The notes: generated by a model from the sequence alone, not told the origin. DNA of 64,000 bases from Opitutia bacterium (GCA_016199925.1 JACQFT010000115.1:14250-78249), one strand, 5' to 3'; positions 36,374 through 58,353 are shown, numbered from the stretch's first letter. Translations and numbers: made by a program.

Positions 36374-39300
36374 TCAGTCGGTGGCGTGGGCGGAGACGAT
36401 TTCGGAAATTCGCCCGTCGGTTTCCGGAGCCTGGGCGGCAATCTCGGCGATCAGGGCTTGTTCGACCGCAGCGGCCAACTGGGCGATGGTCGGCGACTCG
36501 AAAGCGCGGCGGAGCGGCAGGTTGGTCTGAAACGCCTGGCGCACGCGCGCGAGAACCTGCGCGACCAGCAGCGAGTGTCCGCCGAGGTCGAAAAAATTGT
36601 CGTGCACGCCGACGCGGTCGCGGCCGAGCACGGCGCACCAGATTTCGGCGAGCACTTCTTCGGTGGTGGTGCGCGGCGCGACGAACGTTTCCGCCGGCGC
36701 GGCCCGGTCGTGATCGGGTGCGGGCAACGCGCGGCGGTCGAGTTTTCCATTCGGGGTGCGCGGGAGCCGGTCGAGCTGCACGAAGGCCGCGGGCAACATG
36801 TGGTCGGGCAGCGTCCGGGCGAGCGCCTGCCGCAACGCCGTCCGGTCGGGCGCCGCGGTGCCCGCGGTGAAATAGGCCACCAGACCGCGGTTGCCCGGCT
36901 GGTCCTCGCGCACGACGACGGCGCTGTCGCGCACGCCCGGTTGCTGCGCGAGCTGCGCGGCGATTTCGTCGAGCTCGATGCGGTAGCCGCGGATCTTCAC
37001 CTGGTGGTCGAGCCGGCCGAGATATTCGAGCGAGCCGTCGGGCAAATGCCGCGCCAAATCGCCGGTGCGGTAGAAGCGCGCCGGCTCGCCGCCCGCGACG
37101 GCGAGCGTCACGAATTTTTCCGCGGTCAACTCCGGCCGGTGCAGGTAGCCGCGGGCGACTCCGGCGCCGCCGATCCAAATTTCCCCTGGCAGACCCGGCG
37201 GAACAAGTTCGCGGTGGCGGTCGAGCAGGACGATTTGGGTGTTGGCGATCGGACGGCCGATCGTCACGGGGCCGTCGGGCCGGCGGAGCGCGACGGTCGA
37301 GTAGGTCGTGGTCTCGGTCGGTCCGTAGAGATCGTAGACTTTCTGCACCGACGGCAACGCGGCGAGCTGGCGCACGAGCGCGGCGGAAAGCGGTTCGCCG
37401 GCGAGATTGACCGTGCGCACGGAGACGGGAATCGCTTCGGTGCGCACCAACTCGGTGACGGCCGAGGGCACGGAGTTGATCAGCGTGACTTCGTCGCGCG
37501 CGGGCAGCGCGGAAAGTTGCAGCGCGTTGTCGGCGAGGATCACGGCCCCGCCGCGGGTCAGCGGGACAAAAATCTCGAAGACCGACAGATCGAAGCACAG
37601 CGACGTGGCCGCGAGCACGCCGCGCAATTCCTCGGCCGTAAACACATCGTGCGCCCAGTGCGCGAACGCCACGGTGTTCCGGTGTTCGATCGCGACGCCT
37701 TTGGGCCGGCCGGTGGAACCTGACGTGTAGATCACATAGGCGAGGTCGCCGGGCGTGACGCTGTCGGCGGGCTCGTCGGTTTTTTCCCCGGCCAGTTGCT
37801 CCGTCCAATGTTCGTTAAGCCGCAGCACGGCGGCGGCGGGCAGCGCCGGCGGCAACGGAAACTCCGGCGCGTGGTCGGCGACCAGCGCCGCGGCGCCCGA
37901 ATCTTCCAGCATGAACGCCAGGCGCTCGGCCTGATACGCGGGATCGAGCGGCACGTAGGCCCCGCCGGCTTTGAGAATGCCGAGCACGCCGGCGATCATC
38001 GCGGGCGTGCGCGCCGTGCAGAGGCCGACGAGGCTGCCCGCGTTCACGCCGAGCTTCCGCAGGCGGTGCGCAATCTGGTTGGCGCGGCGGCTCAGATCGC
38101 GGTAAGTCCAGCGTGTCGCGCCGTGGACGAGCGCCACCGCCGCAGGGGAACGGCGAGCCTGCTGCGTGAACATCGCGTGCAGGCAGACGCCGGCCGGGTA
38201 GTCGGCTGCCGTGCGGTTCCAGTCCACGGTCAGTTGCCGGAGTTCGTCCGGCGTCAGCAGCGGCAGCCGGTGCACGGTTTGCGCGGGCTGTTCGGCGGCG
38301 GCGCGCAAGAGCATTTCGTAGCGCTCGAGCATCCGCCCGACCGTGGCGCGGTCGAACAGCTCGGTGCTGTAGTGGCAGTCGACGGTCAAGGATCCGTCGG
38401 CGTCGGTGACGTTGAAGTTGAGGTCGAAGTTGACGAACCGTTTCGGGCCGCCCGCGAGCTGCACCTTCGTCTCGCCGTAGTGCAGGGCGCCGTGCTGCCG
38501 GCCGAGATTGAAAGTCACGTTGGTCAGCGGCACGCGGTTCGGGTCGCGCGGCAGATTCAGGCGGCGCAGCAGGGCACCGAACGGATGCTGCCAGTGTTCG
38601 AACGCGTCGAGCACGCGGCGGCGGGTGGCGTCGAGAAAATCCGCCGCGGTTTCGTTTTCGCCGAGCCGGCTGCGGATCGGCAGCAAGTTGACGCAATGCC
38701 CCGCGAGGTTCTGGCAGCCGCCGAGAATCTGCGCGGCGGCCGGCACGCCGACGACGACATCGTCCTGCCCGCTGAGCCGGTGGAGCAGCGTCGTGAACGC
38801 GGCCAGGAGGACGGTGAAGATCGTGCAGCCGTGGGCGGCGCTGTGGCGGCGGACGAGGTCGGCGAGATCGGCGGGCAGCGGCCGCGAACAATGCGCCCCG
38901 GCGTAACTGCGCCGGGCCGGGCGCGGCCGGTCGGACGGCAGGTCGAGCACCGGCACTTCGCCGGCGAACTGTGCGAGCCAAAATGTTTCCGCCGCGGCGT
39001 AGGCCGGAGTATTTCTTCGTTCGGTTTCGTGCAGGGCAAAGACGCCGAAGAGCGCCGGCGCCGGCAGTTGGGCGGTGTGGCCTCGGCGCAATGCGGTGTA
39101 GAGCTGCCCGAGTTCGTAGGCGAGCAGGCGCAGCGACCAGCCGTCGCAGACGATGTGGTGCGCGACCAGCACGAGCGCATGGCGTTCGCCGCCGAGCCGC
39201 GCGAGCCGCAGCCGCCAGAGCGGACCCCGGACCAGATCGAACGGCTCCTCGACGGCGCGGTCGACGAAGCGCGCGAGCGCCGGATTCTCGCCGCCGTTTT

Positions 39301-42300
39301 CCGTCGGCGCGCCGAGAGCCGTGACGGGCAGCTCGAACCACGCGGCCGCGGCGATGCGCTGCCGGTCGCCCGCGGGGCTGAACGTCGTGCGCAAGGAGTC
39401 GTGCCGGTCGACGAGCTGTTGCACGGCAAAATGGAGCGACTGAAGATCGATCAGGCCGTGCAGGTGCACAATGCAGGACTCGTTGTAGGCCGCGGAGACG
39501 GCTTCGTCCATCTGCGCGGCAAACCAGATCTCGGTCTGCGCTTCGGTCAGCGGCACCGCGCCGTCGGGCGCGATCGCGGCCGGCGGCAAAGGCGCCGGCT
39601 CGGCGGAGGGCAGGGGCGGCGGCGTCGCGGCGACCCGGCCGAGATGGTCGGCAAGTTTTCCGAGCGTCGAACATTCTTCCTGCAATTGGCGCATCGAAAT
39701 CTCCGCGCCGAACTGTTCCTTCAGCGCGAGACTCGCCTGCGTCAGAAAAAGCGAATCGAACCCGAGTTCGCTGAAACTCGCCTGCGCCCCGGTGTCCTTC
39801 AGGTCGGTGCCCGACAAGTCCGCGAACAGACGGCGGAGCCGGTCGAGCCATGCGCTGTCGTTTCGCACCGGAACCGGATCGGGCAAAGTCGCCACCGTCG
39901 CGGCCTCGAACGGGTGGCGCGACAACTCTCCGTTGCGCGCCGGCGCGAACGCGGGCGACAGCGCGGGCGGTTCGATCCAGCAGCGTTTGCGCTCGAAGGG
40001 ATAGGTGGGCAGCGCGACGCGGTGGCGTTGCGCGGGAGCGTGCAGCGCGGCCCAGTCGACCGCGACGCCGGCGAGCCAGAGTTTGCCCAACGCGGTGAGC
40101 CACGCCGCGGAGTCGTCGGGGGTTTCTCCCGGCCGGCCCAACGAGCACACGACCGGATGCGCGGCGCCGACGGACGGATGTTGGCGCGCGAGCGGCCCGA
40201 GCGTCTGTCCCGGCCCGACCTCGAGGAGGACTGAGCGCGAATCCTGGAGCAACGCCGCGACGCCGCCGGCAAACCGCACCGGCTGCCGCAAGTGCGACGC
40301 CCAATACGCCGGATCGGTCGCCTGCTCCGGTTTGAGCCAGTCGCCGGTGATGTTTGAGACCAGACTGATCGCAGGCGGGTGAAGTTTCACGCGGCGAACT
40401 TCGGCGAGAAACGCAGCCACCGCCGGTTCCATCATTTCGGAATGGAAAGCGTGCGAGGTCGCGAGCCGGCGCGAGACCGTGCCGGCGGCGGAAAGTTTTT
40501 CTTCGAGCGCGACGATGTCCGGCACCGGCCCCGAGATGACGCAGAGCGTCGGAGCGTTCACCGCGGCGAGCGACAGGCGCGGAGCGAGCAGCGCGGCGAC
40601 TTCCGCTTCGGTCACGCGCACGGCGACCATCGCGCCAGGCGGCTGCTGTTGCACGAGGCGGGCCCGCGCCGCGACGAGCGTGAGCGCATCGGGCAAAGTG
40701 AAAACGCCGGCGAGACACGCGGCGACGTATTCGCCGAGACTGTGTCCGAGCAGCGCACGCGCCCGGATGCCGCGGCTCATCCACAATTGCGCGAGCGCAT
40801 ACTCCGTCACGAACAGCGCCGGCTGCGTGAGGGCCGTTTGGCCGAGTAGCCGCGCGGCTTCGTCCCGCCGGGTAGCGTCGGGATAAAGGATGTCGCGCAA
40901 ATCCAATCCGAGCGGGTCACGCAGAATCTCGCAGCAACGGTCGACCGTTTCGCGGAACACCGGCTCGGATTCATAGAGCCCGCGGCCCATGCCGACGTGC
41001 TGTGCGCCTTGGCCGGGAAACAAAAACGCGACGGGCGCGTCGGTCTCGGCGGACTCGGTTTCGAAAATGCGTTTGGAGTCGCCGCTCCGGAGCAGCGCGA
41101 CGGCGTCGGTTGTTTCGCGGCAGAGACACACCCGGCGGTGCGGAAAAAGTTTCCGGCCGGTCTGCAACGTCCACGCCACGTCGGCGAGCGCGGGTGCCGG
41201 CTGTGCCGCCAGACAGTCGGCGAGATTTGCGGTCATCGCGTCGAGAGCGGTGCGGGACTTGGCCGACCAGACGAGCAGTTGCGGCGAGCCGGTCGGCTCG
41301 GCCGGGGGCGCGGCGGGTGCTTCCTCGAGCACGACGTGCGCGTTGGTGCCGCCGATGCCGAAGGAGCTGACGCCGGCGCGGCGCGGAGTGGCGGCGGCGG
41401 GCCAGTCGCGCAAGCGAGCATTCGGCACGAACGGACTGGCGGCGAAATCGATTTTGGAATTCGGCTCGCGGAAATGGAGCAGCGGCGGCAATTGCCGGTG
41501 CTGGAGCGCGAGCACGGTTTTGATCAGGCCCGCAACGCCCGCGGCGGTGTCGAGGTGCCCGATGTTGGCTTTGGTCGCGCCGAGCGCGCAGTAGCCGGTG
41601 GCACGGGTGCCGAACGCTTTGGTCAGTCCGGCAATCTCGATCGGGTCGCCGAGCGGCGTGCCCGTGCCGTGGGTCTCGACATACGAAACGGTTTCCGGCG
41701 CGACGCCGGCCTGGGCGAGCGCGAGCGCGATCACCTCGGCCTGGCCGGCGATGCTCGGCGCAGTGTAGCCGATTTTCAGCGCGCCGTCGTTGTTGACGGC
41801 ACTGCCGCGGATGACGGCGCAGATCGGATCGCCGTCGGCGAGCGCCTCTGACAACCGCTTCAGCACGACGAGGCCCGCGCCGTCGCCGGGCACGGTGCCC
41901 GCCGCCGCCTGGTCGAACGGCCGGCAGTGGCCGTCGGGCGAAACGATGCCGCCCTCCTGGTGCAGCAGCGCGCGTTTTTGCGGAAACGAAACCGACACCC
42001 CGCCGGCGAGCGCGAGGTCGCACTGGTAACCGAGCAGGTGCTGGCACCCGAGGCAGACGGTGACCAGCGACGTGGAGCACGCGGTCTGCACGTTGAGGCT
42101 CGGGCCGCGGAGATTGAGTTTGTAGGAAATGCGCGTCGTCAGGAAATCCTTGTCGCTGGCGAGCAGCGTCTGGAATCCGCCGGCGCGGCGCAGCGCGGCG
42201 CCCTCGGGCAGAATGTTGGCGAGCAGATAGGTGTTGAGACTCGCGCCGGCGAAAACTCCGATCGCGCCCGGGAACTTGTCGGGATTGACGCCCGCGTGTT

Positions 42301-42622
42301 CGAGGGCCTCCCATGCGCACTCGAGCAGGAGACGGTGCTGCGGGTCCATCAGCTCGGCTTCGCGCGGATTGATGCCGAAAAAGGCGGCGTCGAACCACTC
42401 CGGCTGCGCGAGCAGCGCGCGCGCTTTCACCAGATGCGGATCGTGCGCCGGCACGGGTCCGTCGAGTGGCGACGGCTGCAATTCGTCCGCGGAGAAGAAC
42501 GTGACCGACTCGACGCCGTCGCGGAGGTTGCGCCAGAATTCGGCGAGATCGCGCGCGCCGGGGAAACGGCCGGCCAGCCCGATGATCGCGATGTCTTCGC
42601 GGGTTGACGCTTCCGGGCTCAT
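36374..42622 (-). CDS. Hybrid type-I PKS / NRPS: KS-AT-ACP-C-A-T
   Basis: KS: DIAIIGLAGRFPGA, TACSTSLV, ETHGTGT, NIGHLDTAAG. AT: GHSLGEY plus HAFHS (malonyl-type). ACP: LGFDSLFL. C: PLTEAQTEIW, HHIVCDGWS. A: LAYVIYTSGSTGRPKGV, FDLS, LYGPTETT, NGKLDR. T: FFDLGGHSLL. No KR, DH or ER was seen. Specificity residues are DLFNNALTYK (Ala-like). The real start is ATG 42622, overlapping the upstream stop (ATGA). The ORF-track start at 43747 is an out-of-frame extension. Confidence 0.93.
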   Translation of the reverse strand: MSPEASTREDIAIIGLAGRFPGARDLAEFWRNLRDGVESVTFFSADELQPSPLDGPVPAHDPHLVKARALLAQPEWFDAAFFGINPREAELMDPQHRLLLECAWEALEHAGVNPDKFPGAIGVFAGASLNTYLLANILPEGAALRRAGGFQTLLASDKDFLTTRISYKLNLRGPSLNVQTACSTSLVTVCLGCQHLLGYQCDLALAGGVSVSFPQKRALLHQEGGIVSPDGHCRPFDQAAAGTVPGDGAGLVVLKRLSEALADGDPICAVIRGSAVNNDGALKIGYTAPSIAGQAEVIALALAQAGVAPETVSYVETHGTGTPLGDPIEIAGLTKAFGTRATGYCALGATKANIGHLDTAAGVAGLIKTVLALQHRQLPPLLHFREPNSKIDFAASPFVPNARLRDWPAAATPRRAGVSSFGIGGTNAHVVLEEAPAAPPAEPTGSPQLLVWSAKSRTALDAMTANLADCLAAQPAPALADVAWTLQTGRKLFPHRRVCLCRETTDAVALLRSGDSKRIFETESAETDAPVAFLFPGQGAQHVGMGRGLYESEPVFRETVDRCCEILRDPLGLDLRDILYPDATRRDEAARLLGQTALTQPALFVTEYALAQLWMSRGIRARALLGHSLGEYVAACLAGVFTLPDALTLVAARARLVQQQPPGAMVAVRVTEAEVAALLAPRLSLAAVNAPTLCVISGPVPDIVALEEKLSAAGTVSRRLATSHAFHSEMMEPAVAAFLAEVRRVKLHPPAISLVSNITGDWLKPEQATDPAYWASHLRQPVRFAGGVAALLQDSRSVLLEVGPGQTLGPLARQHPSVGAAHPVVCSLGRPGETPDDSAAWLTALGKLWLAGVAVDWAALHAPAQRHRVALPTYPFERKRCWIEPPALSPAFAPARNGELSRHPFEAATVATLPDPVPVRNDSAWLDRLRRLFADLSGTDLKDTGAQASFSELGFDSLFLTQASLALKEQFGAEISMRQLQEECSTLGKLADHLGRVAATPPPLPSAEPAPLPPAAIAPDGAVPLTEAQTEIWFAAQMDEAVSAAYNESCIVHLHGLIDLQSLHFAVQQLVDRHDSLRTTFSPAGDRQRIAAAAWFELPVTALGAPTENGGENPALARFVDRAVEEPFDLVRGPLWRLRLARLGGERHALVLVAHHIVCDGWSLRLLAYELGQLYTALRRGHTAQLPAPALFGVFALHETERRNTPAYAAAETFWLAQFAGEVPVLDLPSDRPRPARRSYAGAHCSRPLPADLADLVRRHSAAHGCTIFTVLLAAFTTLLHRLSGQDDVVVGVPAAAQILGGCQNLAGHCVNLLPIRSRLGENETAADFLDATRRRVLDAFEHWQHPFGALLRRLNLPRDPNRVPLTNVTFNLGRQHGALHYGETKVQLAGGPKRFVNFDLNFNVTDADGSLTVDCHYSTELFDRATVGRMLERYEMLLRAAAEQPAQTVHRLPLLTPDELRQLTVDWNRTAADYPAGVCLHAMFTQQARRSPAAVALVHGATRWTYRDLSRRANQIAHRLRKLGVNAGSLVGLCTARTPAMIAGVLGILKAGGAYVPLDPAYQAERLAFMLEDSGAAALVADHAPEFPLPPALPAAAVLRLNEHWTEQLAGEKTDEPADSVTPGDLAYVIYTSGSTGRPKGVAIEHRNTVAFAHWAHDVFTAEELRGVLAATSLCFDLSVFEIFVPLTRGGAVILADNALQLSALPARDEVTLINSVPSAVTELVRTEAIPVSVRTVNLAGEPLSAALVRQLAALPSVQKVYDLYGPTETTTYSTVALRRPDGPVTIGRPIANTQIVLLDRHRELVPPGLPGEIWIGGAGVARGYLHRPELTAEKFVTLAVAGGEPARFYRTGDLARHLPDGSLEYLGRLDHQVKIRGYRIELDEIAAQLAQQPGVRDSAVVVREDQPGNRGLVAYFTAGTAAPDRTALRQALARTLPDHMLPAAFVQLDRLPRTPNGKLDRRALPAPDHDRAAPAETFVAPRTTTEEVLAEIWCAVLGRDRVGVHDNFFDLGGHSLLVAQVLARVRQAFQTNLPLRRAFESPTIAQLAAAVEQALIAEIAAQAPETDGRISEIVSAHATD

Positions 42623-45600
42623 GGAGGGACGGCGGCGACGGGGGCGGGTTTGCGGGGGCGGACCGAGCGCTGGCGCTGGGCGCGCGCGGACGCCTGCGCG
42701 TGAAGCGGATCGGGCGCGGACGGTTCGCCGAGGCAGCGCGCGAGCGAACGGATGGTCGGATACTGGAAGAGCGCGAGCAGCGGCAGCGTGCGGCCGAGCT
42801 TCTCCTGCAGCAGCGTCTGCACCTGGGCGACGCGCAGCGAGTGGCCGCCGAGGTCGAAAAAGTTGTCGTCGGCGCCGGGGTGCTTCACGTGGAGGACGCG
42901 GCTCCAGATCTCGGCGATGGCCTGCTCGGTGCCAGCGTGCGGGGCCGAGTAAGCAGTCGCCAACCCCGGCCGGGCCGAGCCGGGCTCGGGCAGAGCAGCG
43001 CGGTCGATTTTGCCGTTGGGCGTGAGCGGCAGGCGGTCGAGCATGACGTAGGTGGCCGGCACCATGTAGTCCGGCAGATGGCCGCCGAGGAACCGGCGCG
43101 GGTTTTCGACGACGGGCGCGGGCGTCGCCGCGAGGTAGGCGATGAGCTGCTGGTCGCCGGCGTCGTCGGGCCGCGCCACGACCACGCAGTCGCGGACGCC
43201 GGGGAAGCGCAGTAGCACGCCTTCGATTTCGCCGAGCTCGACGCGGTGCCCGCGGATCTTGACCTGATGGTCGAGGCGGCCGAGAAACTCCAGTTCGCCG
43301 TTTGCGCGGAAGCGCACGCGGTCGCCGGTGCGGTAGATCCGAGCGCCGGGTTCGCCCACGAACGGATCGGGCAAGAACTTTTCCGCGGTCAGTTCCGGCC
43401 GCTGCCAGTAGCCGGCGGCCACGGATGCGCCGCCGATGCAAAGTTCGCCCGGCACGCCGATGGGCACGGGCTGCAGGTGCGCGTCGAGCACGTAGAGACG
43501 GGTGTTGGCGATGGGCCGGCCGAGCGGGATGGTCGCGCCGATCGTTTCCAAGCGATGGACGGTGGACCACACGGTCGTCTCGGTCGGGCCATACATGTTG
43601 CAGACGCGGCCCGGCAGCCCGTGGTGCAACTGTTCCGCGAGCGGCACCGGCAGCGGCTCGCCGCCAACGAGCAACCGGCGGAGCCGGCGCAACGCGGCGC
43701 GCGCGGCGGGCGTCGCGACGAGGGACTTCGCCAGCGACGGCGTGCATTGGAGGTGGGTGATCCCATGGTGGATGATCTGCTCCGCGACCGAGCGGGGCGG
43801 CACCGCGACGCGGGTCCGGCTGCGCTCATCGCATAGAAGTTTCAGACGATGGAGGTGCGGCAGGCCCGCCAGCACGGCGTCGGTGGCGACGCCAAAATCG
43901 ATGAGACAGGCGATTTCGTCGACGCCGAGACTTTTCATCCGTTCGATCGTTTCCACGCAGGACTCCGGGCTTCCGAACAAGCCGTGGCTTTCAAAGTAGC
44001 GGTCGAACGCCGCGGCGATATGCGCCGCCAGCTCAGCGGCGGAGAAGGGCACGCCCGATCCGTCCGTCGGCTGGTCGGTCAGCGAACGAACGAGATCGGC
44101 CGACTGTCGGAGAAAGGCGCAGAGCGGCCCGCGCACGGTTTCGCGGACGGCGGCGTCGTCGGGCCCGACGAAAGTGTGCAGCATGAGCGTGACGGTGCCT
44201 TTTTCCGGATCGTGCCCGTGGGCGCGCCGCGCTTCGCGGTAGACGCGGATTTTTTCCGCGAGTTCGGCGAAGCTCTGCCCGAGCAGATGGGTCAGGACGT
44301 TCGCACCCAGTTCGCCGGCCTTGCGAAATGTTTCCGGCTGGCCGGACGCGGTGAGCCAAACCGGGAGCTCCGCCTGGCAGGGGCGCGGATGGATGGCGAC
44401 TTCGATGTCGGCGTTGCTGCCGCTCGGCAAGCGCACCGACTCGCCGCGCCAGAGCCGGCGCACGACGGCGATATTGTTTTCCAAAACTTGGCGGCGGTGC
44501 GGGAAATTGTCCGGAGCCAGCGCGAAATCCCGGTCGTGCCAACCGCTCGCGAACGCCACGCCGGCGCGGCCGTGCGAGAGATTGTCGACGACCGCCCACT
44601 CCTCGGCGACGCGGAGCGGGTTGTGCAGCGGCAGCACGATGCTGCCCGCGCGCACGGCGACGCGCGAAGTGACCGCTGCCACGGCCGCGCCGGTAACGGC
44701 GGGATTGGGAAACAGGCCGCCGAACGCATGGAAGTGCCGCTCGGGCGTCCACACCGCCGAGAAGCCGTGCCGGTCGGCGAACTTGGCGCCCTCGAGCAGC
44801 AGCCGGTATTTGTCCGCCCCGTCGGCCGAAGATTCTGCGTCGCTCGCGAAGTAGAGCAGGCCGAAGTCGATTGTTTTTGCCAGCGCCGGGGCCCCGGCAA
44901 TCGGGGCCGAGGCGGCGCCTTCGGCATGGATGACGACCTTGAAGCCCCGCGTGAGCGTCCAGAAGAGTTCGAGCACCGAGATGTCGAAGGAGATCGTGGT
45001 CACCGCGAGCCAGCAGCCGGGAGCGGAGCCGGCGGGAGTTTCGGTGCCGAGCGCGCGGTCCATGCCGGCGAAAAAATTCACGATGTTGCGGTGCGTGACG
45101 ACCACGCCCTTTGGCTGGCCGGTCGAGCCGGAGGTGTAGATCACGTAGGCCGAATCGGCGGGACCGGACGCCGGCGCGGGCGACGCGGCGCCCGCATCGT
45201 TGGCATCAACCGGTTCGTCGAGGCAAACGGGGCGGACTTTCGCGCCGGCGAGGAGTCCGAGAAATTTTTTCTGCGTGAGCACGACGCCGGCACCCGAGTC
45301 GCGGACGATGTAGGCCAAGCGAGCGGCCGGGAAATTTGGATCGAGGGGGACGTAGGCGCCGCCGCTCCGCAGAATGCCGAGCAATCCGACCACCATGGCC
45401 GCGGAGCGTTCGACGCAGATGCCGACGAGCTGGCCGGGACCGATGCCGAGCGCGCGGAGGTGTTGCGCCAAGCGGGCGGCGCGCCGGTCGAGTTCGCGGT
45501 AGGAAAGCGTTTCATCGCCGCCGACCACGGCCGGCGCGTCGGGCATGCGGTCCGTCTGCGCGGCGATCAGGCCATGCACGGTCTGGTCCGACGGAAACTC

Positions 45601-47010
45601 CGCCGCGGTCTGGTTCCAGTCGACGAGAAGTTGCTGGCGCTCCGAACCCGTGAGCATGGGGAGTTTGGCAACAGGCTGTTCGGCGTCGATGGCGACGGCC
45701 TGCAGAACGGTTTCAAAGTGGAGCAGCAGCCGGCGAATCGTCGAGAGGTCGAACAGGTCGGAATCGTATTCGGCGCGGACCGCGAGGCCGAGGGCGCTGT
45801 CGACGAGGTAAAGCGTGAGGTCGATCTTCGCGGTGCCGGAATCGAGTTCGAGCTGCTCGAGGCGCAGGCCGTCCCAGGCGACGGATTCGAGCGCGGCCCG
45901 TTCGTAGGCGAACATGACCTGGAAGAGCGGAGCGCGGCTGAGCGTGCGCGCGGGCGACAGTTTCTCGACGAGTTTCTCGAACGGCACCTCGTCGTGCGCG
46001 AGCGCGTCGAGCACGGAGGCGCGGACGCGGGCGAGCAGTTCGCGGAACGTCGGGTTGCCGGTCAGGTCGGCGCGGAGGGCGAGCGGGTTGATGAAGAGGC
46101 CGACGAGAGCTTCGGTTTCCTTGCGGTGGCGGCCGGCGACGGGCGTGCCGACGAGGAAGTCGCTCTGGCCGGTGTGCCGGTGGAGCACGACCTGAAACGC
46201 GGCGAGCAACGTCATGAAAAGCGTGGCGCCTTGGCTCCGGCTAAAATTTTCGAGCGGAGCCCGGAGGTTGCCCGCGAGAGCCAGCGTCTCGACGCGGCCG
46301 TGGCAATGCTGCACGGCGGGACGCGGCCGGTCGGTGGGAAGTTCCAGGGCCGGGAGCTTGCCGGCGAGGCGATGTTTCCACCAGGCGAGTTGGGACGACA
46401 GCGCCTTGGAGCGTTCGCGTTGCCACCCGGCGTAGTCGCCGTATTGGACGGCCAGGTCGGGGAGGAGCGGGGCGCGGACGGCGCGGCGGGCGGTGCAGAC
46501 CGCCGCGAGTTCGCGGAAGAGAACCGTGAGCGACCAACCGTCGAACACGAGGTGGTGCACGTTCAGCACGAAGATGTGCTCGGTGGCGGAGAGGCGGATC
46601 AGCCGGGTGCGGAAAAGCGGTGCGTGCCGGAGGTCGAAGGGTTGCCGGGCCTCTTCGCGGGCGAGCGCGCAAGCCTGGGCTTCGCGGGCGTCGTCCGGCC
46701 GGAGCCGCAGGTCGGTCACCGGAAGCGGCACGGTCAGTTGCGGCGCGACGATCTGCACCGGCTGGCCGTCGCGCAGAGCGAAGGAAGTGCGGAGAACCTC
46801 GTGGCGGGCGACGACGACGTTGATCGCGGCCTCGAGTTCCGCGGCTTCGATCCGGCCGGTGAGGCGCACCGCGACCGGGACGTTGTAGATCGCGCGGCCC
46901 GGCAGCAACTGGTCGAGAAACCACAGGCGTTGCTGGGCGGAGGAGGCCGGGAAAAAATAGTCGCCGTCGGCGGACCGAGCGGCTGCGGCAGTGGTGTTCG
47001 CAGAATCCAT
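42619..47010 (-). CDS. NRPS module C-A(MOx)-T with a luciferase-like monooxygenase domain inserted in the adenylation domain
   Basis: C: SSAQQRLWFLDQL, HHLVFDGWS. A-N: SAYVIYTSGSTGQPKGV, ISFDISVLE. Then ~340 aa of LLM-like sequence (IDFGLLYFAS..., FSAVWTPERHF, SIVLPLHNPLRVAEEWAVVDNLSHGR, VDEIACLIDFG). A resumes with NMYGPTETT, YRTGDRVRF, NGKIDR. T: FFDLGGHSLR. Specificity residues are DILQLGMVWK (Gly-like). Confidence 0.93.
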   Translation of the reverse strand: MDSANTTAAAARSADGDYFFPASSAQQRLWFLDQLLPGRAIYNVPVAVRLTGRIEAAELEAAINVVVARHEVLRTSFALRDGQPVQIVAPQLTVPLPVTDLRLRPDDAREAQACALAREEARQPFDLRHAPLFRTRLIRLSATEHIFVLNVHHLVFDGWSLTVLFRELAAVCTARRAVRAPLLPDLAVQYGDYAGWQRERSKALSSQLAWWKHRLAGKLPALELPTDRPRPAVQHCHGRVETLALAGNLRAPLENFSRSQGATLFMTLLAAFQVVLHRHTGQSDFLVGTPVAGRHRKETEALVGLFINPLALRADLTGNPTFRELLARVRASVLDALAHDEVPFEKLVEKLSPARTLSRAPLFQVMFAYERAALESVAWDGLRLEQLELDSGTAKIDLTLYLVDSALGLAVRAEYDSDLFDLSTIRRLLLHFETVLQAVAIDAEQPVAKLPMLTGSERQQLLVDWNQTAAEFPSDQTVHGLIAAQTDRMPDAPAVVGGDETLSYRELDRRAARLAQHLRALGIGPGQLVGICVERSAAMVVGLLGILRSGGAYVPLDPNFPAARLAYIVRDSGAGVVLTQKKFLGLLAGAKVRPVCLDEPVDANDAGAASPAPASGPADSAYVIYTSGSTGQPKGVVVTHRNIVNFFAGMDRALGTETPAGSAPGCWLAVTTISFDISVLELFWTLTRGFKVVIHAEGAASAPIAGAPALAKTIDFGLLYFASDAESSADGADKYRLLLEGAKFADRHGFSAVWTPERHFHAFGGLFPNPAVTGAAVAAVTSRVAVRAGSIVLPLHNPLRVAEEWAVVDNLSHGRAGVAFASGWHDRDFALAPDNFPHRRQVLENNIAVVRRLWRGESVRLPSGSNADIEVAIHPRPCQAELPVWLTASGQPETFRKAGELGANVLTHLLGQSFAELAEKIRVYREARRAHGHDPEKGTVTLMLHTFVGPDDAAVRETVRGPLCAFLRQSADLVRSLTDQPTDGSGVPFSAAELAAHIAAAFDRYFESHGLFGSPESCVETIERMKSLGVDEIACLIDFGVATDAVLAGLPHLHRLKLLCDERSRTRVAVPPRSVAEQIIHHGITHLQCTPSLAKSLVATPAARAALRRLRRLLVGGEPLPVPLAEQLHHGLPGRVCNMYGPTETTVWSTVHRLETIGATIPLGRPIANTRLYVLDAHLQPVPIGVPGELCIGGASVAAGYWQRPELTAEKFLPDPFVGEPGARIYRTGDRVRFRANGELEFLGRLDHQVKIRGHRVELGEIEGVLLRFPGVRDCVVVARPDDAGDQQLIAYLAATPAPVVENPRRFLGGHLPDYMVPATYVMLDRLPLTPNGKIDRAALPEPGSARPGLATAYSAPHAGTEQAIAEIWSRVLHVKHPGADDNFFDLGGHSLRVAQVQTLLQEKLGRTLPLLALFQYPTIRSLARCLGEPSAPDPLHAQASARAQRQRSVRPRKPAPVAAVPP
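43830..44880 (-). other. Luciferase-like (FMN-dependent, MupA/MtaG-MOx-type) monooxygenase domain embedded between A-domain cores A4 and A5
   Basis: Bounded upstream by FDISVLELFW (A4) and downstream by NMYGPTETT (A5). The internal sequence shows TIM-barrel LLM hallmarks. Boundaries are approximate, mapped from KTIDFGLLYF (~44877) to LHRLKLLCDE (~43825). Confidence 0.8.
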
Positions 47011-47013
47011 CGG

Positions 47014-50000
47014 TCAGTTTTTCGGAGCGGCGCGGACGGGTTTGGGCGTGCCGGCCGCGGCGGGCCGATACGGCCGCCGGCGCAAGCGCACGATGCCGCC
47101 CGCCGTGCGCCGCGCTTTGGGCCGGCCGGATTTTTGTTCGAGCGCGCGGGCGAGCGCGCCGACAGTCGGGTGTTCGAAAAGACTGCGGACCGACAGCGTG
47201 CTTTGAAATTCCGAGTTGAGGCGCGAGATGACCTGGGCGGCGCGCAGCGACTGGCCGCCGAGCGCGAAGAAATCATCCTGGGCGCCGATGCCGCCGCGGC
47301 CGAGGACCTCGCCCCAGATGCGCGAGATGATTTTCTCGGTCTCGCTCGCCGGGGCGGCGAAGGGCGGGGCGGAGTCGCGGCCGAGTTTGTCGGGCCGGGG
47401 CAAGCGGGCGCGGTCGACTTTGCCGTTGGCCGTCAGCGGCCACCGGGTCACGTGGACGAAGGCGGCCGGCACCATGTGGGAGGGCAGGCGCCCGCGCAGC
47501 AGTTGGGCGAGTTCGCGCGGCGCGGGCGGGTCTTGGTCGGCCTCGGTCTGGAAATAGGCGACGAGATGAATCTGGCCGGTGCCGTCGTCGTGCGCGGCGA
47601 CCAGACATTCCTGCACGGCGCGGTGGGTTTGCAGGACGGATTCGATTTCGGCCGGCTCGATCCGGTGTCCGCGGATTTTGACCTGCTGGTCGAGGCGGCC
47701 GAGAAATTCCAACTGTCCGTCGGCGTGCCAGCGCACGAGATCGCCGGTGCGGTAGAGGCGCGCGCCGGGTTGGAAAGGATGCGGCACGAACTTTTCGCGG
47801 GTGAATTCGGGCTGATGGTGATAGCCGCGGGCGAGCCCGAGTCCGCCGAGATAGAGTTCGCCCGGCACGCCGACCGGCAGCGGCTGGCGGTGCGGATCGA
47901 GCACATACGCCTGCGTGTTGGCGATGGGGGCGCCGATCGGCGGCGCCGCCAGATGTTTGCTCGCGGTGGCCACCGGCAGCCGAGTGGCGACCACGGTGGT
48001 CTCCGTCGGCCCGTAGTGGTTGACCAGCATGCAGGGCAATTTTTCTCCGGGCCACCGGCGGAGACGGTCGCCGCCGGTGAGGATGGCGCGCAGGGCGGTG
48101 TCCGCCGGCCAGGCGACATCCATCGTCGCCTCCGCCAGCGGCGTCGGGAGGAAACAGAGGGTGATCTGCCGGTTCGCAAGCCACAGCGCCAACTGCGCGG
48201 GGTCGGCGCGGATCTCGTCCGGCGGAATGTGGACGCTCGCACCCGCGGTAAGATACGGCCAGATTTCCCAGCCCGAGGCGTCGAAGGCGGGGCTGGCGAT
48301 CTGGGTCGCCCGATCGTGCGCGGTGATCTGATAGGTCCGCTGGTGCCACGCGATGAGATTGACGAGGCTGCGGTGCTGGATCGCCACGCCTTTGGGTGTC
48401 CCGGTCGAGCCGGAGGTGTAGATGACGTAGGCGAGATGATCGGGACTCGAGAGAGCCGTCGTCGCCACCACGGTCTCCGGCGGCGAGGAGAAGGCGAGGA
48501 CGTCGTCGACGGAAACGATGCGGGAAGGACCGGCGGCAAAAACCCCGGCGAGCCGGCTCTGCGTGATCAGCACCGGCGCCTGCGCGTCTTTCAGCATGAG
48601 GGCCTGGCGCTCCGCCGGATATTCCGGATCCAGCGGCACGTAGGCCCCGCCGGTTTTCAGCACGGCGAGCAGGCTGACGACAAAGTCCACCGAGCGCGGC
48701 AGGCACACGCCGACGCAAACTTCCGGGCCGACACCGAGCAAAAGCAGCCGGCGGGCCAGAGTGTTGGCCTGCAAATTCAGGTCGCGGTAAGTCACATGCC
48801 GGCGCTGGTCGACGACGGCCACGGCATCGGGCGTGCGCGCCGCCTGTTTCTCGAACAAGTGGTGGACGCAGAGAATCTCGTCGCAGTCGGCCTCCGTCCG
48901 GTTCCATTCGAGCAGAATGCGATGGCGCTCGGCCGGCGTGAGCAGCGGGAGTGCGCTGATCGGCGCTTCCGGATGTTCGGTGAAGCCGTGCAGCAGCGTG
49001 ACGAGGTGGCCGAGCATGCGGCCGACGGTCTCGTCGTCGAAGCGCAACGGATCGTAGAGGAGGCGGAGCGAGAGTTCGTCGCCGCCGACGGCGTCGAGCG
49101 CGAGCGGATAACTCGGCTGGCTGCGGATGCCGAAACGCCGGCGCCGCCAGACGCCGCCCTGGGCTCTCAGGGCCTGGTCCCAGCTCGGTTCCTGATAGTT
49201 GACGATGCTCTCGAACAGCGGCGTGCCGCGCGGGACATCGGTCCAGCCCTGCAGCTCGGTGAGCGGAGTGTTTTCGTAAGGCCGCAGCGCGGTCCAGAAT
49301 TCGCGCAGCGCCTGCAGCCACACGACGGCGCTCTGCGTCGGCGGCAGCGCCACGCGGACGGGCACGGTGTTGATGAGCAGCCCGACGATGGATTCTGCAT
49401 TCTCCACCGTCGTGTGCCGGCAGGCGCGCACGGCGCCAAAGACCACGTTGTCCTCGCCGCTGTAGCGGCCGAGAAGCAGGGCCCACGCGCCCTGGATGAG
49501 CGTGTTCAGCGTCAGGCCGTGCCGGTGCGCGAATTGTTTCATCGTCGCGTGGCGCGCCGCCGGGAGCGTGAGCTCGCGTCCGCGGTGCACGGAGAGTTCG
49601 GCGGGCGCCGCGGCGGAGACGCTCTTCGCGCCGGGCAACGGCGTCGGCGAACCGAATCCCCGCAGCACGCGGCGCCAGAAAATCTCGGCGTCGCCCCAGT
49701 CGAGCGTCTGCAACCAGTCGATGTAGTGGCGATAGTCGACCGGTGGCGCGACCGCGGGTTCGCCGCCGATCCGGAACGTGTCGCTCGCCGCGAAAACTTC
49801 CGCGAGCAGGATCGCCAACCCGCGCCCGTCGAGCAGCAGGTGGTGGAACGTGAACACGACGCGGTGTTCGTGGTCGCCGGTCTGCGCGACGGCGACCCGC
49901 CAGAGCGGCGCCTGGTCCGGGGCAAAGCCGCGGGCGCGGTCGGCGGCGAGCAGCTCCTCCCACTGGCGCTCGCGCTCGGCGGGGCGCGCCGCGCGCCAGT

Positions 50001-50289
50001 CGTGCCAGACGATTTGTGGCGACACCTCCGCGTTGACGACCTGCCGCGGCTGCCCGGATTCTTCCCGGTGAAACGAGGTGCGCAGGATGGCGTGCCGTTG
50101 CGCGGCCCAGCGCCAGGCCCGCTCGAAGGCCGCGAGTTTCAACGGTTCCGGGAGCGTGATCAGCAGTTGCTCCACATCCACTCCGGGCCGCGGGGCGAAC
50201 GTGCTGTGAAACAACATTCCCTGCTGCATGGGCGAGAGTGGGTAGGCGTCGTTCAACTGGGCCAGCGGCATGGGGCGGTCGGATTTCAC
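47014..50289 (-). CDS. NRPS module C-A-T (first gene of the assembly line)
   Basis: C: YPLSPMQQGMLFHS, HHLLLDGRG. A: LAYVIYTSGSTGTPKGV, FDAS, NHYGPTETT, YRTGDLVRW, NGKVDR. T: FFALGGQSLR. Specificity residues are DAWFLGHVVK (closest to Leu-type DAWFLGNVVK). The codon at 50289 is GTG. An alternative ATG (MPLAQL) lies at 50271. Confidence 0.92.
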   Translation of the reverse strand: MKSDRPMPLAQLNDAYPLSPMQQGMLFHSTFAPRPGVDVEQLLITLPEPLKLAAFERAWRWAAQRHAILRTSFHREESGQPRQVVNAEVSPQIVWHDWRAARPAERERQWEELLAADRARGFAPDQAPLWRVAVAQTGDHEHRVVFTFHHLLLDGRGLAILLAEVFAASDTFRIGGEPAVAPPVDYRHYIDWLQTLDWGDAEIFWRRVLRGFGSPTPLPGAKSVSAAAPAELSVHRGRELTLPAARHATMKQFAHRHGLTLNTLIQGAWALLLGRYSGEDNVVFGAVRACRHTTVENAESIVGLLINTVPVRVALPPTQSAVVWLQALREFWTALRPYENTPLTELQGWTDVPRGTPLFESIVNYQEPSWDQALRAQGGVWRRRRFGIRSQPSYPLALDAVGGDELSLRLLYDPLRFDDETVGRMLGHLVTLLHGFTEHPEAPISALPLLTPAERHRILLEWNRTEADCDEILCVHHLFEKQAARTPDAVAVVDQRRHVTYRDLNLQANTLARRLLLLGVGPEVCVGVCLPRSVDFVVSLLAVLKTGGAYVPLDPEYPAERQALMLKDAQAPVLITQSRLAGVFAAGPSRIVSVDDVLAFSSPPETVVATTALSSPDHLAYVIYTSGSTGTPKGVAIQHRSLVNLIAWHQRTYQITAHDRATQIASPAFDASGWEIWPYLTAGASVHIPPDEIRADPAQLALWLANRQITLCFLPTPLAEATMDVAWPADTALRAILTGGDRLRRWPGEKLPCMLVNHYGPTETTVVATRLPVATASKHLAAPPIGAPIANTQAYVLDPHRQPLPVGVPGELYLGGLGLARGYHHQPEFTREKFVPHPFQPGARLYRTGDLVRWHADGQLEFLGRLDQQVKIRGHRIEPAEIESVLQTHRAVQECLVAAHDDGTGQIHLVAYFQTEADQDPPAPRELAQLLRGRLPSHMVPAAFVHVTRWPLTANGKVDRARLPRPDKLGRDSAPPFAAPASETEKIISRIWGEVLGRGGIGAQDDFFALGGQSLRAAQVISRLNSEFQSTLSVRSLFEHPTVGALARALEQKSGRPKARRTAGGIVRLRRRPYRPAAAGTPKPVRAAPKN

Positions 50290-50499
50290 GCATCAAACTA
50301 TCCGGTTCCGGACAAATTCCGAAGTGGGTGATGACCTGATGCCCCCCGGTTAAAAACCCCAGTCCGGGTGGCGATCCGGCCGCGCGCCGCCGCGAAAGCG
50401 GGCACAGTCCCCATCGCCGGAAAAACGCTCCGCCGCTATTTTCCAACGGTGCAACGCCGCCCGGCCGACGATTTCCACCGCTTCCACCACGAACGCTCC

Positions 50500-51672
50500 A
50501 TGGCGAACCGCCCCAACATTGTCTCCGGCGACCCCGCGGCCGTGTCGGAGCGCGCAGATTGTTCCACCGGACACTTGCCCGTGGCGATTCTCGGCGTGCC
50601 GATCGATCCGCTGACGGTGGAGAGTGCGATCGGGCGGCTGGAGCAACTGGTGGACGGACGCGCCCCGGCGTATGCCGTGACCCCGAACGTGGATTTTCTC
50701 GTGCAGGCGCGCCGGGACACGGAGCTGCGCGAAATCCTGCTCGAAGCCGACCTCGTGCTCTGCGACGGCCAGCCGCTCGTGTGGGCCTCGCGCTGGCTGG
50801 GCAATCCGCTGCCCGAGCGCGTGGCCGGCGCGGATCTCGTGCCGCGTTTCGTCGCCCGCGCGGCGCAACGGGGTTACCGGCTCTTTCTGCTCGGGGCCGG
50901 GCCGGAGGCAAACGACGCCGCGGCGGCGCGCCTGCGTGCGCAGCATCCCGCGCTTGTGATCGCCGGAAATTACGCGCCGCCTTTCCGCCCGCTGGCGGAA
51001 ATGGACAACGGCGACATCGCGCGGCGCATCCGGGCCGCGCAGCCCGACGTCGTGCTCGTGTCGTTCGGTTGTCCGAAGCAGGAAAAGTGGATCGCGCGGA
51101 ACTACCGCGCGCTCAGGGTGCCGGTGTGCCTCGGGGTCGGCGCCACGATCGATTTTCTCGCCGGGCGCATGCGGCGCGCGCCGCGCTGGATGCGGCGCAC
51201 GGGACTCGAGTGGGTTTTCCGGCTGGCGCAGGAACCCGGCCGGCTGGGCCGCCGTTACGCCGACGATCTCCGCTGTTTCGGCGGAGCGATCTTCGCCCAA
51301 TGGTGGCGCCTCGGGCGGAAGCGCGGGGAAAAAAATCCGCCAGGGGCGGTGACGATCACCGGGCAGGGCGGGCCGTGGCAACGCGCGCGGGTCACCGGCC
51401 ACCTTGACCGGCCGGCGATCGAGCGGCACGTGGCGGTGTGGCGGCGGATCGGCGGCGAAGGACGCGACTGCCGTCTCGATCTCGCGTGGGTGGATTTCGT
51501 CGACAGCACCGGAGTCGCGCTGTTGGCGGCGTTGCAAAAACAATTCCACCGGGGCGGCCGCCGGCTCGCGCTGTGCCGGCCGAGCAACGCGGTGCGGCGA
51601 GCGTTCGGGCAGCTCGGCCTGCTCGGCTACTTCGAGCTGCTGCCGGGAAAAGCGGAGAGCGGACCGGCGTGA
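50500..51672 (+). CDS. WecG/TagA/CpsF-family (GT26) glycosyltransferase fused to a C-terminal STAS domain
   Basis: GT26 motifs: ILGVPIDPLT, VTPNVDFLV, LVLCDGQPLVWASRW, FLLGAGPE, VLVSFGCPKQEKWI, VCLGVGATIDFLAGRMRRAPRWMRRTGLEWVFRLAQEP. C-terminal ~105 aa STAS: RLDLAWVDFVDSTGVALLAAL...RLALCRPSNAVRRAFGQLGL. Start at the internal ATG 50500. Confidence 0.85.
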   Translation: MANRPNIVSGDPAAVSERADCSTGHLPVAILGVPIDPLTVESAIGRLEQLVDGRAPAYAVTPNVDFLVQARRDTELREILLEADLVLCDGQPLVWASRWLGNPLPERVAGADLVPRFVARAAQRGYRLFLLGAGPEANDAAAARLRAQHPALVIAGNYAPPFRPLAEMDNGDIARRIRAAQPDVVLVSFGCPKQEKWIARNYRALRVPVCLGVGATIDFLAGRMRRAPRWMRRTGLEWVFRLAQEPGRLGRRYADDLRCFGGAIFAQWWRLGRKRGEKNPPGAVTITGQGGPWQRARVTGHLDRPAIERHVAVWRRIGGEGRDCRLDLAWVDFVDSTGVALLAALQKQFHRGGRRLALCRPSNAVRRAFGQLGLLGYFELLPGKAESGPA

Positions 51673-52817
51673 ACATCGGACTGTCGACCTCCGTCATCCA
51701 GCGCGGCCGGAGCGGCGTGGCCCAGTATGTTTTTTCTCTCCTGCGCGCCATGCTGCCGCTGGCCGGCCGGCACCGCTTCACGCTTTTCGTGCTGGAGGAA
51801 GACTTGCCGCTGTTCCGTTTTGCCGCGCGGGCGGCGGAGCTGGTGCCCGTCGCCGAGCGCCACCGCGCCCCGATGCGCGACATCGTGTGGCACCAGACCG
51901 TGCTGCCGAAATTGGCGGCGCAGCACGCGCTCGACGTGCTGCATGTGCCCAGTTACCGGCGGATGCTGCGGGCGGCCCCGTGCGCGCTGGTGGCGACGAT
52001 CCACGACCTCGCGCCGTTTCATTTGCCCGGCAAATACGATTGGCCGCGCATGATCTACGGACGGGTGGTGGCGCGCCGGCTCGCCCGGCGACAAGACCGC
52101 ATCATCGCCGTCAGCCGGGCGACCGCGCTGGACATCAGCCGGTTTTTCCAGGTCGCGCCGGAGAGAATCGACATCATTCCCAACGGCGTGGACCACTCGC
52201 GGTTTTTCCCAGCCCCCGCAGCCGGCGCGAAATCGTGGGCGGCCCACTGCGGAGTCAGGAAGCCGTTTTTTCTCTACGTCGCGCGGCTGGAACACCCGGG
52301 GAAGAACCACGTGCGCCTCATCGAGGCCTTCAACGGCTTCAAGCGCGCGACGCGGTCGGATTGGCAACTGGTGCTCGGGGGCAGCGACTGGCACGGGGCC
52401 GAGGCGATCCACGAGGCGGTGCGCCGCTCGCCCTACGCCGACGACATCCGCCGGCTCGGATTTGTGCGCGAGGCCGAACTGCCGCATTGGTATCTGGCGG
52501 CCGATGCATTTGTTTTTCCGTCGCTCTTTGAGGGCTTCGGTCTGCCGCCGCTCGAAGCGATGGCGTCGGGCTGCCCGGTGCTGTGCTCGACGCGCGGATC
52601 GCTGGGCGAAACCGTGGGCGAAGCGGCCGCGCTTGCCGACCCCGAGGACATCGGCGGGATGCAGCAGCAGCTCGCCCGATTGGCCGGCGATGCCGCCTGG
52701 CGCGCGACGCTGCGCGCCGCGGGCCTGAAGCGCGCGCAGGAATTCGACTGGGAGAAATCGGCCGCGGCCACCCTCGCGACTTACGAGACCGCCGCAACGT
52801 TGGGGTGCGCGAAATGA
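51669..52817 (+). CDS. Glycosyltransferase family 4
   Basis: GTG start overlapping the upstream stop (GTGA). VNIGLSTSVIQRGRSGVAQY..., HVPSY, IIAVSRATALDI, VFPSLFEGFGLPPLEAMASGCPVLCS (EX7E). Confidence 0.88.
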   Translation: MNIGLSTSVIQRGRSGVAQYVFSLLRAMLPLAGRHRFTLFVLEEDLPLFRFAARAAELVPVAERHRAPMRDIVWHQTVLPKLAAQHALDVLHVPSYRRMLRAAPCALVATIHDLAPFHLPGKYDWPRMIYGRVVARRLARRQDRIIAVSRATALDISRFFQVAPERIDIIPNGVDHSRFFPAPAAGAKSWAAHCGVRKPFFLYVARLEHPGKNHVRLIEAFNGFKRATRSDWQLVLGGSDWHGAEAIHEAVRRSPYADDIRRLGFVREAELPHWYLAADAFVFPSLFEGFGLPPLEAMASGCPVLCSTRGSLGETVGEAAALADPEDIGGMQQQLARLAGDAAWRATLRAAGLKRAQEFDWEKSAAATLATYETAATLGCAK

Positions 52818-53000
52818 AGAACTGGGGCGATTGCACCAGCGGATAATTTCCCCGTCCGGCCCTGTGCCCGGAGGGTTTCAACTGCGGTAGTTTTCTGTCC
52901 CGACCCGATGCCGCGGCGGCAGCGACTCTCCTATGGTTCCCGCCGACCGGTCGCCGACGCGGCCGGTCGAGCAACAATCGAAACCAACAAGGATACCATC

Positions 53001-54095: not shown

Positions 54096-54214
54096 TTCCG
54101 CGCCGACTCTCCGGCCGTCGGACCGGAGGCGCGCCGTGCCGTCGCGCGCGTCCGGTCACGCGGCCGCTCTGTTCGCTCCGGAGTTCCAGAACCCCCAAAA
54201 CTTGAAAATGCGGA

Positions 54215-54760: not shown

Positions 54761-54910
54761 CCCGGCTGTTCGCACCGCGGGCATCGCCTGCATGGAGCCG
54801 GACCCCGCTCGCGCCGGGGTGCTTCGCCCCCCGCAGAGCAGGCGTTCACCCAGCGGCGGCGTCCGGCGCGCTGTGCTATTGATGAGGAGGCTCAAACCAC
54901 TCCTTCCACC

Positions 54911-56674: not shown

Positions 56675-56862
56675 CGGTGCGGCGCGTGGCAGATAAAATT
56701 CTCCGTCCGGTCCGATCGTCCGGAAACTGGGGAATGCTTTTCCGGATCGGCGCATTGACGCACCACCCAAGGCGGTGGTTGCCGCCTAGGGAAAGCGGGC
56801 CGTTGCGCGCACCCCGGTGCGCTCCGCGGATCTCAACCAACCAATACACGGAAATCTGCATC

Positions 56863-58264: not shown

Positions 58265-58353
58265 TCTGCCCGCGCCCACGTTGTCCTACAACGCCGCGCG
58301 CGACCGACAGGTCGAGGCGCGGCGGTTGCTGGGGCGCAACGCCGGGCCGATTC

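Follow-up and report, generated by a model that had tools for sequence, protein, structure and literature searches.

A luciferase-like monooxygenase within the adenylation domain of an internal glycine module that precedes a separate ketosynthase in an Opitutia bacterium

Introduction

What becomes of a glycyl unit when the monooxygenase embedded in its adenylation (A) domain belongs to a module that is not the last of its assembly line? The question is raised by a gene, here called geneB, in a stretch of 64,000 nucleotides from an Opitutia bacterium (GCA_016199925.1, JACQFT010000115.1:14250-78249), referred to below as the window. geneB encodes a nonribosomal peptide synthetase (NRPS) module of condensation (C), A and thiolation (T) domains with a luciferase-like monooxygenase (LLM) inside the A domain, and the next gene opens with the ketosynthase (KS) of a polyketide synthase (PKS). 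In the MtaG and MelG modules a monooxygenase (MOx) splits a glycine A domain at the A4/A5 position (PMC10204066, PMC11411415) and is assigned hydroxylation of the glycine C-alpha (PMC10204066). Here we describe geneB and its operon, compare them with homologous loci and weigh what the module is likely to make.

Results

Domain structure of geneB

geneB (42619..47010, minus strand) encodes a protein of 1463 aa, 100% identical to protein P0001 of a metagenome-assembled genome at NCBI labelled 'Opitutae bacterium'. It is the second module of the line, C-A(LLM)-T by Pfam and NCBIfam, with the following parts:

45625..46953, minus strand: C domain with LCL-type N-terminus SSAQQRLWFLDQL and intact HHLVFDG
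44875..45561, minus strand: N-terminal part of the A domain, motifs A1-A4, ending just past FDISVLELFWTLTRGFKVVIH
43840..44865, minus strand: embedded LLM (TIGR04020/PF00296), aa 716-1057
42991..43797, minus strand: C-terminal part of the A domain, position 278 region ITHLQCTPS, then A5-A10
42730..42924, minus strand: T (peptidyl carrier protein, PCP) domain, GGHSL

Pfam placed Condensation at aa 20-462, AMP-binding in two pieces of which the first covers aa 484-700, AMP-binding_C at aa 1261-1334 and PP-binding at aa 1363-1427, and the E-values of the domain matches in geneB and in the following gene, geneC, are far beyond chance. Bac_luciferase (PF00296) was matched at aa 721-1032 (E 1.7e-54), and TIGR04020, the NCBIfam model of the MupA/Atu3671 family of flavin mononucleotide (FMN)-dependent luciferase-like monooxygenases, at aa 716-1057, over the whole 341-position model, with 495 bits versus a cut-off of 244. 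Motif A4 (ISFDISVLELFW, at aa 675 (FDIS)) stands before the insert and A5 (NMYGPTETT, at aa 1138) after it, with the adenylation model TIGR01733 picking up again at aa 1072. Motifs A3, A4, A5, A7, A8 and A10, the GGHSL of the T domain and the HHxxxDG of the C domain are intact, and geneB is confirmed as a C-A-T module with a complete LLM between A4 and A5. The specificity code, read like all those given here via motif anchors, is DILQLGMVWK, which we take to be the classical glycine code of the Stachelhaus table, and the A domain reads as Gly-specific. An AlphaFold2 model of aa 470-1345 built on a 6-row alignment was too poor to be used (mean pLDDT 51, pTM 0.35).

Position in the operon

geneB is the second gene of a compact minus-strand operon of five genes (~20 kb), in which each junction from geneA to geneE is overlapping or a few bases wide:

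47014..50289, minus strand: geneA, module 1, C(starter/DCL-clade)-A-T, 1091 aa (Pfam, motifs, A code)
36374..42622, minus strand: geneC, module 3 KS-AT-ACP and module 4 C-A-T (Pfam, motifs)
41471..42598, minus strand: KS of geneC
40208..41026, minus strand: acyltransferase (AT) of geneC
about 39659..39871, minus strand: acyl carrier protein (ACP) of geneC
32164..36369, minus strand: geneD, module 5, C-A-T with a thioesterase (TE) (Pfam, motifs)
30497..32167, minus strand: geneE, ABC transporter (Pfam), its ATG overlapping the geneD stop

The NRPS-PKS line thus encoded has five modules and is followed by the transporter: Cs-A(Leu-like)-T / C-A(LLM,Gly)-T / KS-AT(malonyl)-ACP-C-A(Ala)-T / C-A(Val-like)-T-TE(Cys) / ABC transporter. 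The remaining codes are DAWFLGHVVK in geneA (Leu-like), DLFNNALTYK in module 4 of geneC (Ala) and DALWLGGTFK in geneD (Val-like). Three more modules come after geneB within the operon, and the glycine module is therefore internal. The geneB protein stops 36 aa past its T domain, and its stop codon and the geneC start share an ATGA overlap (ccATGAgc, 42619..42622, minus strand). The KS that opens geneC has an intact Cys-His-His triad (TACSTS, ETHGTGT, NIGHLD) and, together with its AT and ACP, the make-up of an elongating NRPS-to-PKS interface; the AT (GHSLG...HAFH) is of the malonyl type and the ACP carries GFDSL. The Pfam scan found no ketoreductase (KR), dehydratase (DH) or enoylreductase (ER) domain in module 3 and no epimerization (E) domain in geneC.

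A first-pass annotation made from the window alone had described most of this: an LLM at about 43830..44880 splitting a glycine A domain between A4 and A5, at the insertion point of MtaG and MelG, in a module that is internal and coupled through ATGA to an intact KS-AT-ACP. The profile matches, both quoted motifs, the specificity code and the gene overlap bear it out, and agreement with MtaG and MelG follows their published insertion position (PMC10204066, PMC11411415) rather than a direct alignment, the two sequences being absent from the listed homologue matches and from the 80 loci introduced below.

The operon opens with geneA, whose upstream neighbour is a divergent WecG glycosyltransferase gene on the plus strand. 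The top Protein Data Bank (PDB) matches of the geneA C domain are the C domain of McyB, the C domain of PvdL that follows FAAL-T, and TycB/SrfA-C, which places it in the DCL/starter clade and not with LCL domains. Since the PvdL domain of this clade follows a fatty-acyl ligase-T unit, an acyl starter is likely to be delivered to geneA in trans; other NRPS, PKS or fatty-acyl-ligase genes were not found among the large open reading frames (ORFs) of the window that were scanned. The same five-module architecture is present in a metagenomic relative that is 74% identical (L082), including the divergent WecG-STAS and GT4 genes, and, at a greater distance, in the genome of an uncultured member of the Opitutaceae (L044), likewise with divergent glycosyltransferases. 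The organization of the operon is shared by three relatives within Opitutaceae.

Neighbourhood of A(LLM)-T modules in other genomes

Homologues were collected in two ways. A search of 1.84 billion cluster representatives gave 2213 matches at E <= 1e-30, the best 150 of which (P0241-P0390) were classified with window-derived probes; both A-domain flanks were spanned in 148 of these best 150, and the A4-LLM-A5 arrangement is very common. A one-genome-per-species scan yielded at least 561 loci, 80 of which (L002-L081) were examined.

In 91 of the 150 representatives the protein stops after A(LLM)-T; another 39 have a C domain next, and 6 have a TE, the layout of MtaG and MelG. A4/A5-type loci that end in A(LLM)-T and offered enough sequence had the end of the protein 13-64 aa past the T domain in every case. 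In 18 loci, a gene starting with KS was found directly after A(LLM)-T; these loci belong to Acidobacteriota, Gemmatimonadota, Chloroflexota, Actinomycetota, Bacteroidota, Verrucomicrobiota and, among the proteobacteria, several classes. A KS gene came after one intervening gene in 8 more loci and beyond a five-gene cassette in L001. In ~23 loci, mostly of Rhodobacteraceae, a PKS gene lay just upstream of the A(LLM)-T gene. Not one of the 150 representatives, and not one of the 27 loci that have a KS downstream, has the KS fused to A(LLM)-T: the hand-off to the KS always crosses from one protein to another.

The genes intervening between T and KS are heterogeneous (pyridoxal phosphate (PLP) decarboxylase, amino-acid kinase, GT2, GT4, GDSL lipase), and apart from recurring glycosyltransferases no accessory enzyme shared among them emerged. 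The cassette of L001, a 52%-identical fused homologue of layout C-A-T-C-A(LLM)-T, is of the methoxymalonyl-ACP type (17641..22020) and lies between the A(LLM)-T gene and a KS-AT-KR gene; it comprises a 3-hydroxyacyl-CoA dehydrogenase, an ACP, an acyl-CoA dehydrogenase, an FkbH-like HAD protein and a methyltransferase. In P0044 and P0115, C-A(LLM)-T-C is followed by a C-terminal TauD-type (PF02668) dioxygenase, a second oxygenase in the same protein.

Two of the proteins without a C domain were checked by Pfam; both have the layout formyltransferase-A(LLM)-T (F-A(LLM)-T) and are paired with KS-AT-KR-DH-ACP-TE and a family-2 glycosyltransferase. Such clusters are very widespread and occur in Rhodobacteraceae, Comamonadaceae, Sphingobium and others, with examples at 502..12460 of L033 (Thalassovita litoralis; also with Wzz), at 7793..20094 of L012 and in ~23 further loci. 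In these two-gene systems, T-to-KS is the only possible route. Wherever the domain upstream of A(LLM) could be identified it was N-acylating: 101 of the 150 representatives have a C domain there, and both C-less proteins examined by Pfam have a formyltransferase.

The census suggests that the TE-fused, amide-forming use of an A-domain monooxygenase is a minority one, and that most such modules are internal, with a separate KS as the commonest hand-off. Judged by its domain layout, geneB belongs to a large group of clusters that share the A4/A5-LLM module across phyla; its arrangement is common in genomes, a moderately interesting variant and not a one-off oddity. The first-pass annotation had presented the module as an exception to a terminal-amide norm. 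Its observation is confirmed; its interpretation finds support only in part, since a terminal position turns out not to be the norm for such modules.

The same comparison bears on gene order. Fused homologues carry C-A-T-C-A(LLM)-T, which sets geneA before geneB, and the conserved T/KS adjacency argues for geneB before geneC. A line in which gene order is not biosynthetic, for instance geneC, geneA, geneB, geneD, would have the KS begin the chain with a fatty acyl donor, and the C domain of geneD would be fed by the Gly(LLM) module. The DCL/starter-clade C domain of geneA could indeed take its donor from another T domain, and the 39 representatives that pass to a C domain offer a parallel; yet geneA, geneB, geneC and geneD follow one another in tight coupling, A(LLM)-T/KS adjacency recurs in at least 18 unrelated loci, two-gene systems included, and geneC has no E domain to justify a DCL acceptor. 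We regard such an order as highly improbable.

The monooxygenase and its expected reaction

Along its full length, the embedded LLM shares ~57% identity with the PuwE Ox domain (PDB 6KET, E 5.6e-119). Of the 93 positions conserved to 95% or more among 132 LLM domains of the family, it retains 91, including the WTPERHFH motif, and His759, which is invariant in the LLM family, is present in geneB. PuwE Ox is assigned alpha-hydroxylation of an ACP-bound acyl chain, giving the 3-amino-2-hydroxy acyl unit of puwainaphycin (PMC4219810), and for TIGR04020 LLMs of PKS lines the assigned reaction is likewise hydroxylation alpha to the carrier thioester (PMC8739492). Hydroxylation at this position is the generic reaction of the subfamily. 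OnnC, NazB, CalD, MndB and palmerolide module 9 resemble PuwE Ox in belonging to it and in being assigned alpha-hydroxylation, but all of these enzymes are free-standing between domains and act on ketide or beta-amino acyl chains, whereas the LLM of geneB is inserted in an A domain and would act on glycine.

LLM-family enzymes also catalyse Baeyer-Villiger and epoxidation reactions (PMC8739492), and the insert could in principle perform another oxidation, giving an alpha-keto/imine (oxalyl-type) unit or oxidizing a returning intermediate at a later stage. However, the closest characterized relatives are all assigned simple alpha-hydroxylation and the LLM is physically tied to the T domain of module 2, which makes a different oxidation very unlikely.

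Proposed mechanism

The domain identities, insertion site, motifs, codes, gene coupling and conserved T/KS pairing described above are read directly from sequence. Starting from them, we propose, with a little better than even confidence, that the LLM hydroxylates N-acyl-glycyl-S-T and that the KS then extends the resulting carbinolamide. Module 1 would condense an acyl or other starter to a Leu-like residue; glycine would be adenylated, loaded on T2 and joined to the acyl-Leu chain by the C domain of geneB. The LLM, with FMNH2 from a cellular reductase, would hydroxylate the Gly alpha-carbon of the T-bound N-acyl-glycyl thioester, and the N-acyl-alpha-hydroxyglycyl thioester (carbinolamide) would be kept and passed in trans to the KS of geneC. 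Malonate extension without reduction would then give a 4-acylamino-4-hydroxy-3-oxobutanoyl unit, to which Ala and a Val-like residue would be added before the Cys-type TE releases the product.

In this scheme we infer that the alpha-carbon is hydroxylated, that this occurs after condensation and that the hemiaminal survives, as well as the product. Because an N-acylating domain precedes A(LLM) wherever one was identified, the N-acyl group is probably meant to stay on the hydroxylated glycine. Peptidyl-alpha-hydroxyglycines are stable, and animals need a dedicated lyase to cleave them. Both points favour hydroxylation after condensation with the N-acyl group retained.

Several points weigh against this mechanism. 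The two deviations of the LLM among its 93 near-invariant positions are G866N, at a 96%-conserved position, and Y966F. Codon 966 is TTT for Phe (44113..44115, minus strand), rare in a 69% G+C genome, where 131 of the 132 family proteins (99%) and 79 of 81 loci have Tyr, the close relatives P0002, P0005 and L044, of the same architecture, among them. Residue 966 aligns with Trp250 of Vibrio harveyi LuxA, in a weak fragment alignment that is consistent with the full-length match. That Trp, as work by Li and Meighen in 1995 reportedly found, is involved in flavin/aldehyde binding. A near-invariant Tyr aligned to it being replaced by Phe, LLM activity may be reduced; for Phe966 itself, a recent mutation, attenuated function and an error in the assembly are all conceivable. 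Also, no flavin reductase gene was identified among the operon genes or the large window ORFs scanned. An LLM that is inactive or often skipped would give acyl-Leu-Gly-(malonyl)-Ala-Val, the insert being a relic or the hydroxylated congener a minor one, and the skipped step that results in solanimycin A (see below) is a precedent. We consider this unlikely, with 91 of 93 near-invariant positions, His759 and the full-length TIGR04020 and 6KET matches retained, with Tyr to Phe a conservative change and with Tyr in relatives of identical architecture. The change at 966 partly touches what the first-pass annotation had named as the mark of an inactive relic, a lack of conserved FMN-binding residues; the LLM looks functional, and full activity is not to be assumed.

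A second difficulty for retention of the hydroxylated unit is that MtaG and MelG, the only characterized A4/A5 cases, fragment it (PMC10204066). Acting in the same way, geneB would release acyl-Leu-NH2 mid-line, and the glyoxylyl thioester would be lost or serve as KS starter, one operon yielding two products; insertion site and Gly code are the same in both systems. Against this, the TE-fused form makes up only 6 of the 150 representatives, the downstream modules and the T/KS pairing are conserved, and the formyl group of F-A(LLM)-T systems would presumably be pointless if it were discarded as formamide. The stability of peptidyl-alpha-hydroxyglycine and the retention of the hydroxylated residue in solanimycin B speak in the same direction, and we find fragmentation quite unlikely.

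Three further points count against the proposed extension of a carbinolamide by the KS. A beta-keto-gamma-hydroxy thioester could cyclize by itself. The window KS has no particular likeness to other KSs that come after A(LLM)-T, being 41-62% identical to following and non-following KSs alike, and with equal ranges in the two groups the comparison was uninformative on a dedicated KS clade. Finally, a literature search found no characterized A4/A5-LLM module feeding a KS and no paper on an F-A(LLM)-T cluster; with most subscription journals outside its coverage, this absence is weak evidence.

Comparison with characterized systems

MtaG and MelG share with geneB an LLM at A4/A5 of a Gly A domain and the presumed C-alpha hydroxylation of a tethered N-acyl-glycine. 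They differ in being last modules, C-A-MOx-A-T-TE, which through the fused TE cleave off a terminal amide with loss of glyoxylate, whereas geneB ends after its T domain and feeds KS-AT-ACP and two NRPS modules.

A closer functional parallel in one respect is module 4 of SolF (solanimycin, Dickeya solani), in which a flavin monooxygenase is embedded in a Gly module that lies inside the line (PMC10204066). Solanimycin B keeps its alpha-hydroxyglycine through further peptide and polyketide extension, and solanimycin A arises when the step is skipped (PMC10204066). In SolF as in geneB the Gly module is internal and the chain continues after the embedded monooxygenase step. The insert, however, lies at a8/a9, a site that the solanimycin authors set against the a4/a5 of MtaG and MelG (PMC10204066), the next domain is C and the line is much larger, while in geneB the insert lies at a4/a5 and a KS comes next. 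The carry-forward that had been called foreign to textbook NRPS logic is thus documented chemistry for alpha-hydroxyglycine, with C as the next domain; a KS in that place, for which no paper was found, is undocumented as far as our literature search reached. P0019 and P0091 carry an LLM of the same subfamily late in the A domain, after A8 and before A10, as in SolF, so LLMs have been inserted at two different A-domain sites.

The F-A(LLM)-T clusters resemble geneB in their A4/A5-LLM A domain, in a protein that ends after T and in a KS on a separate protein; they differ in having formyl in place of a peptidyl N-acyl group and a reducing PKS module that carries the TE. In the N-acyl aminals of the pederin/onnamide type, an oxygenated Gly-derived carbon persists, flanked by ketide in the pederin family. 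The alpha-hydroxyglycine of skyllamycin is made by a stand-alone flavin monooxygenase (PMC10204066). Unlike in geneB, the oxygenases of the pederin and skyllamycin pathways are trans-acting, and the PKSs of the pederin family are of the trans-AT type.

Surroundings of the operon

Two glycosyltransferase genes adjoin the operon (together 50368..52817), and the other large ORFs scanned in the window are polysaccharide, secretion and protease genes:

50368..51672, plus strand: WecG-STAS glycosyltransferase, divergent from the operon
51438..52817, plus strand: ORF of a GT4 glycosyltransferase
2754..5261, minus strand: PAS histidine kinase
7660..11187, plus strand: GH9 cellulase-like protein
11308..12618, plus strand, and 17282..18706, minus strand: GT4 glycosyltransferases
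18553..20004, minus strand: Wzy-like protein
25877..29677, minus strand: type II secretion system (T2SS) ATPase and secretin
54287..56674 and 58209..61106, both plus strand: two large subtilases with Calx-beta/FN3 domains

The flanking genes (1..30000 and 52900..64000) therefore place the operon in a cell-envelope/polysaccharide neighbourhood. The WecG-STAS/GT4 pair is kept beside the operon in both relatives, at 1842..4180 of L082 (72-74% identity) and at about 1951..4673 of L044 (52-57% identity), and the two genes may be part of the cluster, where they might, for instance, glycosylate the new hydroxyl. WecG, GT2 or GT4 genes are also found near unrelated A(LLM) loci (L012, L020, L033, L041, L052, L055).

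The TE of geneD (32242..33015, minus strand) has Cys in place of Ser in the nucleophile elbow (GGYCFGG; GPYLLGGYCFGGNVAYEMA). Among related loci, the Cys is kept in L082 and is also found in TEs of L012, L026 and L080, with Ser in 37 other TEs. Cys-TEs are linked to strained-ring or otherwise unusual release chemistry, as in ObiF of obafluorin and SulM of sulfazecin.

A long plus-strand ORF (43849..50331, 2160 aa) and other long antisense ORFs were dismissed as artefacts of the 69% G+C content, because ORF 47273..50911 (minus strand) and several alternative-frame ORFs gave no Pfam match.

Discussion

In the standard account, a monooxygenase in an A domain serves to make terminal amides, and the census points to this as a minority use. 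If a KS does extend the hydroxylated glycine, the module would be a built-in route to N-acyl hemiaminal/beta-keto motifs, which would be unusual, reactive, pharmacologically interesting and related to the N-acyl aminal of the pederin type. Hundreds of orphan clusters would encode that route, very common ones of marine Rhodobacteraceae among them. At ~20 kb and five genes, the operon described here is small enough to be tractable for heterologous expression.

The broader pattern, in which the KS is never fused, glycosyltransferases lie nearby and F-A(LLM)-T is abundant, is arguably more interesting than geneB alone. Tentatively, and with more doubt than confidence, we suggest that glycine modules with an A4/A5 LLM and a separate KS may form a large cross-phylum class that builds N-acyl-hemiaminal ketides and uses the hydroxyl as a handle. 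The hydroxyl would then, for example, be glycosylated by the conserved neighbouring WecG/GT4 or GT2 enzymes, or the ring would be closed by a Cys-type TE, and the Opitutae product would be a glycosylated or cyclized lipopeptide-ketide of a new structural type.

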